Part shown: one piece after another, positions 431 through 50,112 of the stretch | Layout: every line of letters starts with the position of its first letter | Numbering within the stretch: position 1 is the stretch's first letter | Source: Mustelus asterias | Taxonomy: Eukaryota | Length of the DNA: 64,000 bases | Assembly (NCBI RefSeq): GCF_964213995.1 | Contig: NC_135803.1 | Location: forward strand, 14,322,001 to 14,386,000 | Reading direction: 5' to 3' | Notes under the pieces: model-generated | What the model saw: only the letters and a program-made list of their open reading frames with translations | Database searches by the model: none | What the model was told of the DNA's origin: nothing | Translations under genes and position numbers: made by a program

Positions 431-577
431 TAAAGGAAATGATGAACACCGCAAGTTGATTAACATCATAAGGATTAAAAAGAAATACACACGCACATTC
501 AGTCCAGTATCAGTACAAGATCTCTTGATCCTGCAGACACTGAGAAATACCTCATCAAACGCTCTGGTCAGGTAGGT
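431..577 (+). promoter_or_regulatory. Putative promoter and non-coding exon 1 of P2Y14-like copy A
   Basis: AGGAAAT (ETS-like) ~434, ACCGCA (RUNX-like) 448, GATTAAAA 473, Inr-like TCAGTCC with A at 501, donor CAG|GTAGGT at 571/572; the block recurs upstream of each paralog. Confidence 0.5.
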
Positions 578-880
578 GATTTTTATTGTGTGTTTGTGGG
601 ATATATATGTAACCATCAGACATTTTGAATGAACTCTAAATAAACTCAAAGAGTTGCACATAACCAATCAATCTAACCATGTCAGTGATCACTGCACTCA
701 GTTTTATTGTCTCTCAGGCATTTAACTTTGTTACTGTTTAAACATTGTGAGGGAAGTCTCAGCGTAGATTAACTCTCTTAAACCGGTGTGGAATCTTATC
801 AGGTCTTTGTCATTAAAGGAATCTTTTTTCTGAGGTGGAGAAATCTACGGTTAGTGAGTTCTACAGCAACAAGGGGTCCA

Positions 881-980
881 CCTTGGCATAGTGGTAGAGC
901 CCTCGCATTAGAGACGGGGGAGGTCTCTATACGGCACAAGTCCCACTCCAGAAAGTTAAGTACATAATCTCAGGTGATTT
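881..980 (+). mobile_element. Ancient tRNA-headed SINE 5' fragment (Deu-SINE-like) in intron 1
   Basis: tggcatagtggtag...caagtcccactccaga...cataatct resembles a decayed tRNA-derived head; homologous copies at ~12621, ~32362-32450 (inverted) and ~40036. Confidence 0.35.
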
Positions 981-1825
981 TGAACTCATGGGGCAAAACG
1001 ACAAGTGAAATTCACCGGAAAAATGTTTCAACAAAAGCAGGTTTTGGAAATTAAATTTCAGGACAGAAAATTTGGGCCACGATTTCAAAGCAAAACTTGA
1101 TCAAATAACTGCACCAAAGCCTTAACATCTTTCTATCTTTCTCTCCTAAATGTTCAGTTATGAATCTAGCATTCAGTACAAGAAGCAATGACCAGATCTG
1201 GAGAAATACACTCACACAGAATCAGGAGGATCAGTTGTGTAACTCCCTGCCCTAAGTTATGTAACGCCTGCCTGGGCTGTGTCATACACATCCTGAAAGC
1301 ACTCTGCTCTGTGTATACCTTAATCTGTCACATAACTACAAAATAATTTGCTTCATCACAGACAAACAATTACAACATCAGCGGGTCACGGGGAGGAAGG
1401 AAGAATGTGCTGAAAAAACACTCCTGTTTCATCATTGCCTTAAAGTGTAACAGCCTGAATTGTTTCTTAGACCTAGAAGATAAAACAGGTTCAGTAGAAG
1501 GTGAATAAAATGAAATGAAATGGGGGTAAGAACGGCTAATGGTCAAAGTTCATATAATATGGGCATTCATGGCTTTGTTTAACATTTCCAACATTTGAAG
1601 TTTTTTCTACACAAGAAGACCAGCAGAAAGCAAGAAATGAGACCAAGTCATCAACTCATGATCAAACCACTGGAGTTTCCCCTCATATGATTCAAAGCTG
1701 GTAATTAGATTCGTGAAGAACTATGGTTCATTTCCAGAATCCAAAACACTGGATCCAGAGGATTCTCATTAATATATTGAAAGCACTACCATCTGTGCTA
1801 AATATTTTGCTCTCGCGTTTCAGGT

Positions 1826-1928
1826 GTTACAACACTGACTATGCTTCAAAAGTACTTCATTGGCCAGGAATGGATCTGGGAGAACCGAATTTATGATGGG
1901 TGCTATATAAATGCAAGTTCTGTCTTTC
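1826..1928 (+). mobile_element. Ancient L2/Deu-SINE-type 3' tail fragment in intron 1
   Basis: ttacaaca..cttcaaaagtacttcattgg..gctatataaatgcaagtt; also present at ~13933-14035 and ~41261-41340. Confidence 0.45.
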
Positions 1929-2050
1929 AAGAAGAACATAAACAAAGTCTTCAAAGCATAGTTTTATTCTTTATCACCATGTTGCAGCATTTTTTTATGT
2001 CAAAAGATTCTGGTTAAATATAAGCAGTGGTAAATTCCGTCCCATGAGGA

Positions 2051-2140
2051 CGGAGTGTGGTGACGAAGGGGTTTTCACAGTAACTTCATTGCAGCACTTA
2101 CGTAAACCTACTTGTGACACTAACAAATAAACTTAAAACT
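2051..2140 (+). mobile_element. SINE type-B 3' tail fragment
   Basis: ggagtgtgg..ttttcacagtaacttcattgcag..cctacttgtgacactaacaaataaactt. Confidence 0.75.
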
Positions 2141-48300: not shown

Positions 48301-48430
48301 TGTGATTGGTGCAGACTCGATGGGCCAAATGGCCTCATTCTGCACTGTGGGATTCTATGATTCTACGACTAAATATCTCTTTAAATTTCAGCCACTATAT
48401 CTCCATTGTCCTACCTTATAACCTAGTTTC
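45325..48430 (-). mobile_element. Old degraded CR1 LINE carrying four SINE insertions
   Basis: LEYCVQFWSP, KFADDT and LGPQLSTI pieces; SINEs at ~46151-46446 (-,B), 46596-46830 (+,A), 47199-47460 (+,B), 48052-48368 (+,A). Confidence 0.8.
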
Positions 48431-48469
48431 ACTTTAGACACTGCCTTCATACTCTTATTTCTACTTTAT

Positions 48470-48750
48470 TCATTTTATTTATTTTATTTATTAGTGTCAC
48501 AAGTAGATTTAACACTGCAATGAAATTACTGGGAAAATCCCCCAGTCGTCACACTCCGGCATCTGTACACAGAGGGAGAATTTAGCACCCAACCAGCACG
48601 TCTTTCAGACTGCGGGAGGAAACCAGAGCACCCGAAGGAAACCCATGCAGACATGGGGAGAACATGCAGATTCCACACAGACAATGACGGGGAATTGAAC
48701 CCAGGTCCTTGGCGCTGTAAGGCAGCAGTGCTAACCACTGTGCCGCCCCA
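48470..48750 (-). mobile_element. SINE type B
   Basis: Head, V-domain, B tail. Confidence 0.85.
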
Positions 48751-49322
48751 TGGTTTAAAACACAAAACACAAGTCTTGGGCCCACACATTTCACCTTCAA
48801 ACTGAATGGGAGATTCTATCATGTTACATTCACTGTTGACATGAGGCTCTTTTACTGTAAGGATATTGATTAATCTTGTCTCATTGCACATTAACAGGTC
48901 TACCTTACTTAGTCTGCTCTCTCATTGGTGCTGGAATGTACTACTCTAAGAAATTGTCCCAAATATACTTCAATGAACTCATTTCCGAGTCTACCTTTAC
49001 CTCCCTGATTTGCCCAATCAATTCCTATCGATGAAAGTCACCCACGATTATGCTCGTAGTACCTTCCTCACATGCCCCATTTATGTTTTCCTGTATACTC
49101 GGTCCTGCAGTGTAGCTAGCGTTGTTTCTGCATCTCAAACAATAACTGTCCCTTTTCCTGAGATACAATGAAAAGCTGTCAACTGCCATTCCACTTCAAT
49201 AAGTTTCACTCCCCATGGCAACCAGATCACATGGGTATATCTCCAAACAGAGGTACTCATCAGGAAACTCCCCCCTTTTCAGAACATTCTGTTTTATCTT
49301 AAGTTAAAGGCGTTTCAAATCA

Positions 49323-49585
49323 GTTTATTTAAAGTTTATTTCTTTATTAGTCACAAGTAAGGCTTACACTGCAATGAAGTTTACTGTGAAATTCCCCGAG
49401 TCGCCACAGTCCGGCGGGTCAATGCACCTAACCAGCACGTCCTTCGGAATGTGGGAGGAAGCCGGAGCACCCGGAGGAAACCCACGCAGAGACGGGGAGA
49501 ACGTGCAAACTCCACACAGTGACCCAAGCCGGGAATCGAACCCGGGTCCCTGGTGCTGTGAAGCAGCAGTGCTAACCACCGTGCT
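49323..49585 (-). mobile_element. SINE type B
   Basis: Head, V-domain, B tail. Confidence 0.88.
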
Positions 49586-50112
49586 TGTGAAGATAACCAC
49601 TAACCTTGTGAAGATAAGCATTCATGACAATACGTTTAGTTTCTGTCATTTGCAGAGGAACACTCCCACTGGCAGTTTTGCCTTCATTGCAATCTCGAAA
49701 CTCCAGCTATGCTCCTCGTGAATGGGGGAGCAACTCCCAGAGACTGATTGGCCTACTTCTGTTCCTATGTCTGCAAAATACACTGAACAGCTAGTAAGGG
49801 AAATATGACCTCATTGAAGTTAGATGGATGGAACAGCTCATCAATAACAGGTATACTGCCTGAGTAAAACTTCAAAACCACAGCTCCAAGTCAGCGACAT
49901 GTTAAAGCTGGCTAACACTGATCGTGAAAATACCCTGCCTGATGCAGTCTTTATTATCCTCCAAATAAAATTAATAAATGTTAGATTAAAATGCAATTTT
50001 CACTATTCTATATATAAATGCGCATGCAAATACACTTTTGTAGCATTCTACCTTTTAATCTAATTGCTTCACACGCTGTGGAGACTTAAAAAGGTGTGGT
50101 ATACCTTTGAAG

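Follow-up and report, generated by a model that had tools for sequence, protein, structure and literature searches.

We analyzed a 64,000-nucleotide stretch of the Mustelus asterias contig NC_135803.1 (14,322,001-14,386,000; referred to here as the window), which carries a tandem array of receptor genes. Positions are counted within the window, and negative positions lie to its left. Open reading frame (ORF) mapping and self-comparison resolved the array into six units in one orientation, of which Z, A, B and E are intact and C and D are broken. Four long receptor ORFs were found in the window, all on the plus strand: A, B, E and, outside the array, GPR171 (Table 1). A, B and E are single-exon ORFs. 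At the amino-acid level A and B are 96% identical, E is 82-83% identical to both, and GPR171 is 31-32% identical to all three. The intact unit Z lies left of the window at -8815, encodes 349 amino acids and is 84-85% identical to A, B and E. A more distant, older paralog, called II, lies at -25324 and is 55-57% identical to them. The initial annotation of this DNA had described at least five co-oriented units with A, B and E intact and had supposed that the array might continue to the left; both points were borne out, with Z as the fourth intact copy and Z and II as the leftward continuation. A further unit between E and GPR171 and another 5′ block left of Z were searched for, and none was found.

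Each unit is laid out as a 5′ flank, a coding exon and a 3′ flank, as seen from collinear blocks in the repeat-masked self-comparison. Splice donors at 572 (A), 12214 (B), 31753 (D) and 39246 (E) each close a conserved 5′ block; the donor letters are CAG/GTAGGT in Z, A, B and E and CAA/GTAGGT in D. In every intact copy a splice acceptor lies 9 bases 5′ of the ATG. The conserved donor and acceptor suggest a non-coding first exon in each unit. Alignment agreed with the earlier description of the broken units. C is a 3′ coding fragment, from the end of transmembrane helix 6 (TM6) to the C-terminal tail, with its 3′ untranslated region (UTR), and it contains an in-frame TGA followed by a 1-base insertion. 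D consists of 5′ flank blocks only, and a search for 5′ coding remnants from 16900 to 41900 gave none. The kilobase-range flank homology reported earlier also held, as both named pairs beat all 300 shuffles: 8419-8510 and 45131-45225 matched in 73 of 95 columns (score 118, best shuffle 41), and 8790-8825 and 49285-49318 in 29 of 38 (score 40, best shuffle 24).

The gene order of the surrounding cluster is P2RY12, P2RY13, P2RY14, II, Z, A, B, C, D, E, GPR171. On either side, at 14.41-14.47 Mb and 13.98-14.02 Mb of the contig, it is flanked by Med12 domains encoded on the opposite strand, which identifies it as the MED12L cluster. The array sits inside this MED12-family gene between P2RY14 and GPR171. 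The initial annotation had pointed to the place of mammalian P2RY14 next to GPR171, and the array does adjoin GPR171, which closes the cluster. Like P2RY12, P2RY13, GPR87 and GPR171 of the MED12L cluster, the array genes share one strand and one host gene and have a single coding exon with a predicted non-coding first exon. Unlike them, the array is an additional, multi-copy member between P2RY14 and GPR171, and no tetrapod member was found in the searches made. NCBI lists A and B as proteins and labels Z, II and the P2RY14 candidate ‘P2Y purinoceptor 14-like [Mustelus asterias]’; the array is a small family of already annotated genes.

Sequence comparison indicates that the array genes are not copies of P2RY14 and that they form a receptor lineage of their own beside P2RY12, P2RY13, P2RY14, GPR87 and GPR171. 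Human P2RY14 is most similar to the P2RY14 candidate, which lies 54 kb left of the window (51% identity), followed by P2RY12 and P2RY13 of this genome (46-48%), GPR171 (39%) and the array (35-38%). Three trees gave the same array placement: a 79-row quick tree, from which 16 near-redundant or distant rows were omitted, and two trees of row subsets, a 42-row mixture-model tree and a 34-row tree. The array and the ‘P2Y14-like’ proteins of sturgeon, gar, bowfin and teleosts form one clade (support 100/100) on a long stem, and the P2RY12/13/14/GPR87 group excludes the array (99/98). A union of the array with P2RY14 was rejected by the approximately unbiased (AU) test (p = 0.0095). These results do not support the earlier reading of the units as copies of P2RY14. 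A separate possibility, that each copy derives from a different ancient ortholog group, was ruled out because all copies fall in one clade. The array genes have the features of a class A G protein-coupled receptor (GPCR) of the P2Y12-like group, namely the seven-helix fold, the PF00001 domain and P2Y12-14 as nearest solved relatives, and H6.52-x-x-R6.55 and K7.35-E7.36 are present in four of the four intact copies. Compared with human P2RY14 (PDB 9YDU, 9J0B), they have a like fold and lie in the same gene cluster, but they do not group with tetrapod P2RY14, and the genome has its own closer gene. With respect to GPR87, which in the human cluster is found between P2RY13 and P2RY14, both the trees and the position speak for a separate gene, and Amia has both a GPR87 and a member of the array clade, but the AU test did not reject the union (p = 0.06).

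The same group may already have a name. Rinne et al. 2019 (PMC6504862) describe a group near GPR34 as ‘gar/fishes (41, many duplicates)’, name it GPR206 and list ENSLOCP00000021478 as its gar protein. The gar member of the array clade is UniRef W5NLG9, labelled ‘probable GPR34’, as are several other fish members in UniProt. The array clade is probably GPR206, matched by description and not by identifier: both lie in the GPR34/P2RY12-14 branch, occur in gar and teleosts with many duplicates and lack a human ortholog. The passage that names GPR206 gives no shark or ray members, genomic position or array anatomy, which the present array would add. Among the best 120 of 362 profile matches, 117 of the 117 with a named species were elasmobranchs or ray-finned fishes. 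Full-length clade members among 150 cluster representatives nest in gar or teleost groups, and the two of four frog matches that were placed in the tree were both true P2RY14. Literature searches found no paper on shark members; a 2007 review on P2Y12-like receptor evolution may already mention the clade. The result would extend a probable, named but unstudied orphan receptor to cartilaginous fishes and place it in the P2Y cluster, and it implies a loss on the tetrapod line. Many proteins labelled ‘P2Y14-like’ in shark and teleost databases are a distinct orphan receptor, which corrects their annotation, and conclusions on UDP-sugar (uridine diphosphate sugar) sensing in fish that were built on this label need rechecking.

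In the 79-row tree, the elasmobranch members of the clade fall into types I and II. Each type holds both sharks and rays, so the I/II duplication appears to predate the shark-ray split. Copy counts of type I were taken as lower bounds from the 10 clusters opened. Scyliorhinus torazame has at least five copies, Cetorhinus at least three, and S. canicula, Carcharodon, Hemiscyllium, Stegostoma, Heterodontus and Leucoraja at least two each. The lineage-specific expansion proposed in the initial annotation is therefore not supported, given 2-5 copies in eight other elasmobranch species and a I/II split older than the shark-ray split. Instead, these comparisons point to an array that is a common shark feature with local turnover, rather than a novelty of one lineage. 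Over the whole protein, A and B group with catshark copies (91/98). Turnover itself, also proposed earlier, is evident from intact and broken units side by side.

The model of receptor E has seven helices (predicted local distance difference test score, pLDDT, 84.6), and its fold is closest to the P2Y14 and P2Y12 structures (template modelling score by target 0.88-0.92). In the alignment, type I receptors keep Y102, H184, H250, R253, Q260, K277 and E278 of human P2Y14 (Y3.33, H5.36, H6.52, R6.55, Q6.62, K7.35 and E7.36). They differ from it at V93 (Tyr), V99 (Cys), N156 (Tyr), N188 (His), F191 (Gly), R274 (Tyr or Phe) and the DRY motif (TRY or IRY). Tyr occupies the V93 position in 26 of 26 aligned clade rows, and Gly the F191 position in 21 of 22 elasmobranch rows; in every one of the 26 rows, Thr, Ile or Asn stands in place of the Asp of DRY. 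Y256 (6.58) is kept in Z and E and replaced in A and B (Table 1). According to PMC12738662, changing V93 of human P2Y14 to Trp blocks UDP-glucose and allows a UDP analogue, F191C raises ADP-glucose (adenosine diphosphate glucose) potency, and mutation of Y6.58 abolishes agonist competition. The array offers natural pocket variants at positions already mutated in human P2Y14. By analogy with the human mutants, Tyr at V93 together with Gly at F191 would be expected to exclude the sugar and to relax uracil selectivity. A passage of PMC10642967 gives KDKE as the sugar motif of P2Y14. Its equivalent is R-E-K-E in Z, A and B and K-G-K-E in E, and K-D-K-E is found only in II. With the motif altered in Z, A, B and E and Tyr at V93 in all, the array lacks the sugar motif and open sugar pocket of P2Y14, and the Tyr at V93, a residue of the sugar sub-pocket, speaks against the UDP-sugar ligand implied by the initial annotation. 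The immune or danger-signal role suggested there is possible.

The history of the units was read from their flanks and coding exons. The coding exons of A and B are 96.6% identical in nucleotides, and part of the 3′ flank is about 95% identical, in contrast to the 5′ flanks at 71-74%. The 5′ flank of B is closer to those of Z, D and E (76-86%) than to that of A. Unequal crossover just 5′ of the coding exon would explain this pattern, with conversion of B by A as the alternative. The B copy of the A 3′ flank runs into the coding sequence of C across 8 shared bases, and the B-C junction therefore appears to be a deletion at an 8-base microhomology that broke C. An exact 34-base tandem duplication was also seen at 19535-19603, right at this junction.

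Tandem GPCR arrays with gene conversion are common, and signals of conversion were found in the pairs Z-E, A-B and Z-B. A run of 70 degenerate codons shows no synonymous difference between Z and E (permutation p = 0.0011), and a run of 113 shows none between A and B (p = 0.007). Over the 91 bases at 16281-16371, B has 3 differences to Z and 15 to A (run test p < 1e-4); outside the tract the differences to Z and A are 48 and 12 before it and 63 and 8 after it. Fisher tests on a middle window used a window picked by eye, and the case for conversion rests on the permutation tests. The Z-like tract in B and the Z-shared tract in E are probably the result of gene conversion. In a tree of the middle third of the protein the four copies group together (93/71); the N-terminal part of A and B groups with catshark copies (89/90). 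Across nine multi-copy species, within-species likeness was highest at residues 136-210 (within/between ratio 0.27-0.37) compared to residues 76-105 (0.73-0.82), a comparison made without a significance test; in two windows with hardly any variation the ratio was 0.87-0.94, computed from very small values. Since intact and pseudogenised tandem copies of differing age coexist and the copies did not evolve independently, the sequences suggest a mix of birth-and-death and gene conversion (concerted evolution).

Purifying selection acts on the intact copies, as dN/dS (nonsynonymous to synonymous substitution ratio) between intact type I copies is 0.2-0.45. At the rim of the pocket, Lys2.60 and Gly2.64 always occur together, in 6 of 31 sequences from three shark orders; explaining this pattern takes 4 changes on the whole-protein tree, against 2 on a tree of its window that has weak support. 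A copy with Glu2.64 and a non-acidic copy were both kept in all eight shark species of the analyzed set with at least two type I copies. A sequence of events consistent with these data would begin with a gene in the cluster of the jawed-vertebrate ancestor that was then lost on the line to tetrapods. After a I/II split before the shark-ray divergence, type I would have multiplied by unequal crossing-over. A later crossover 5′ of the coding exon would have put the A coding exon and 3′ flank behind the 5′ flank of an older unit, giving B, and two subsequent deletions would have cost C its front part and D its back part. Gene conversion would keep the middle of the receptor alike within a species, and the pocket rim at TM2 and loop 1 would stay different between copies.

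Taken together, we give a probability of about 0.7 to the following reading. The array is made up of tandemly repeated genes for an orphan class A receptor, which stands as a separate lineage next to P2RY12/13/14/GPR87/GPR171 and was found here only in sharks and rays and in ray-finned fishes. The receptor likely couples to Gi, as is known from the P2Y12-type group, and its ligand is likely a small molecule that carries phosphate, probably a nucleoside diphosphate and not a UDP-sugar. Several results weigh against this reading. On the 34-row set, sister-group unions of the array with GPR171 (AU p = 0.09), GPR34-type receptors (p = 0.26) and GPR87 were not rejected. The upstream gene is placed with P2RY14 at moderate support (88/89 in the 34-row tree, open in the 42-row tree) and is 48% identical to bowfin GPR87. 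The conserved TM6 and TM7 residues also occur in GPR171 of this genome, and largely in GPR87, so they do not prove a nucleotide ligand. Searches for clade members in tetrapods, coelacanth, lungfish and chimaera were blank, and these were sequence searches rather than a genome-level test; the gar member was once missed by a word-based search. The synonymous-run test was non-significant in four of six pairs. Finally, an all-Mustelus asterias clade of the four copies was not rejected (AU p = 0.21 for the whole protein, p = 0.09 for the N-terminal part), nor, for the middle part, was a union of A and B with catshark copies (p = 0.11), so these tests do not date single copies.

A Gi-type receptor for a nucleoside diphosphate-like anion is our best inference, and it is weak on the ligand because GPR171 keeps the same basic residues. 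A serious rival, though on balance an unlikely one, is that the same orphan clade binds a non-nucleotide ligand, either a lysophospholipid, as GPR34 does, or another anion, or is largely constitutively active. Four residues of the nucleobase pocket differ from P2Y14 (V99, N156, N188 and F191), the DRY Asp is replaced in every aligned clade row, and the link to GPR34 recurs in the UniProt labels, in the unrejected GPR34-type union and in the placement of GPR206 near GPR34 in the passage of Rinne et al. 2019 (PMC6504862). K7.35, however, is kept as in P2Y12-14, both GPR34-type genes of the genome have Asn at this position, and sequence and fold scores favor P2Y12-14 over GPR34.

A further proposal goes beyond the orphan-receptor reading, and we hold it only tentatively and would not back it at even odds. 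The MED12L cluster of jawed vertebrates may have held a further purinergic-type receptor that was lost in tetrapods. Sharks would keep it as an array in which conversion homogenises the receptor body and selection preserves two pocket-rim types across shark orders, one acidic and one non-acidic at 2.64. The outcome would be a small repertoire that discriminates between ligands, either adenine-type nucleotides or another anion. If true, much of what is annotated as P2Y14 in fish would be this other receptor. It is doubtful, in our view, that the additional copies arose neutrally, as a by-product of instability at a tandem locus, and that their differences have no functional meaning. Two of the six units are broken, A and B have lost the Y6.58 whose mutation abolishes agonist competition in human P2Y14 (mutagenesis passages of PMC12738662), and a dN/dS below 1 can partly stem from conversion by functional neighbors; yet four ORFs are intact under the dN/dS range given above, and the pairing of a Glu2.64 copy with a non-acidic one is kept in 8 of 8 species.

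An expansion of a P2RY14 ortholog restricted to this lineage and sensing UDP-sugars, as the initial annotation had it, is very improbable. P2Y14 is the best solved-structure match by sequence and fold, the NCBI gene name is P2Y purinoceptor 14-like and the array adjoins GPR171, but human P2RY14 is closer to P2RY12, P2RY13, GPR171 and the upstream gene of this genome than to most array copies, and the AU test, the several copies in other sharks and the Tyr at V93 in every aligned row all oppose it.

The initial annotation had also raised the concern that A and B might be haplotypes of one gene misassembled in tandem. Window positions 1-7600 were compared with contigs from four runs, which belong to a single study and represent at most three samples; contig depth does not measure copy number. 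Samples S2 and S3, which may be the same animal, each contain contigs that match the 5′ flank of A itself without a difference, along with one contig that carries the letters of B at 5 of 5 and 2 of 2 differences. Given the flank divergence and the presence of A and B letters in both samples, the haplotype artefact was set aside: despite 96.6% coding identity and no contig seen spanning A and B, it is hardly credible with 5′ flanks as far apart as those of other units and 35 coding differences (dS 0.09).

Table 1. Features of the receptor array and its neighbor in the window.
Feature	Position	Strand	Basis or remark
Unit A, conserved 5′ block with predicted non-coding first exon, donor GT 572	400..571	+	Donor common to Z, A, B and E
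Receptor A, intact, 345 aa, acceptor ends 2371, His at human P2Y14 Y256 position	2380..3417	+	ORF, alignment; NCBI protein
Unit A 3′ flank, homologous to Z, B, C and E flanks	4463..8735	+	Repeat-masked self-comparison
Unit B 5′ flank, predicted first exon, donor 12214	12004..14178	+	Self-comparison, donor
Receptor B, intact, 345 aa, Gln at Y256 position	15802..16839	+	ORF, alignment; NCBI protein
Probable Z-like conversion tract inside B, TM4 to extracellular loop 2	16281..16371	+	Difference counts, run test
B copy of A 3′ flank; 95% to 4704-5873, 85% to 8129-8284; ends at B-C deletion junction	18261..19610	+	Self-comparison
Pseudogene fragment of unit C: final quarter of the coding region with 3′ UTR; early stop at 19646-19648	19603..20082	+	Alignment
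Unit C 3′ flank, broken up by LINE/SINE insertions	20386..29650	+	Blocks collinear with Z, A and E flanks
Unit D 5′ non-coding blocks, donor 31753; coding exon and 3′ flank deleted	31402..34713	+	Self-comparison
Unit E 5′ flank, predicted first exon, donor 39246	39010..41800	+	Self-comparison, donor
Receptor E, intact, 361 aa, Lys/Gly type at 2.60/2.64	42010..43095	+	ORF; seven-helix model
E tract without synonymous difference from Z, loop 2 end, TM5 and TM6	42553..42765	+	Permutation test; 215 identical bases
Unit E 3′ flank	43124..49319	+	Self-comparison
GPR171, 331 aa, neighbor closing the cluster, outside the array	62985..63980	+	Groups 100/100 with eel GPR171-type sequence

Other genes of the cluster and the genome were also examined. 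No separate GPR87 was found in the genome: the best match to bowfin GPR87 was the P2RY14 candidate, and no receptor lies between P2RY13 and that candidate (region 14,197-14,268 kb of the contig). GPR87 may have been lost in Mustelus asterias or may be younger than the shark split. In the P2RY14 candidate, KDKE and V93 are conserved, but F191, Q260 and R274 are replaced by Cys, Arg and Tyr, respectively; these replacements hint at a pocket with lower selectivity for uracil. This gene, too, is present in 2-3 copies in several sharks and rays. Two GPR34-type receptors were found on different contigs, one of them at C4:110985003, together with a divergent neighbor of one; the receptor at C4:110985003 may be GPR34B of Rinne 2019. 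The genome search also returned other local clusters of distant receptors (25-33% identity) on contigs C3, C4, C10, C13, C14, C18 and C72, and near-identical matches on the small contigs C104, C110, C156, C225 and C773. Short and long interspersed nuclear element (SINE and LINE) sequence makes up about 30-40% of the region, with long pieces of reverse-transcriptase ORF left of the window; the LINEs are presumably of the CR1 type. A G-rich low-complexity patch with nested tandem repeats and a 46-base G run lies at 25257-26485, between LINE fragments in the C 3′ flank.

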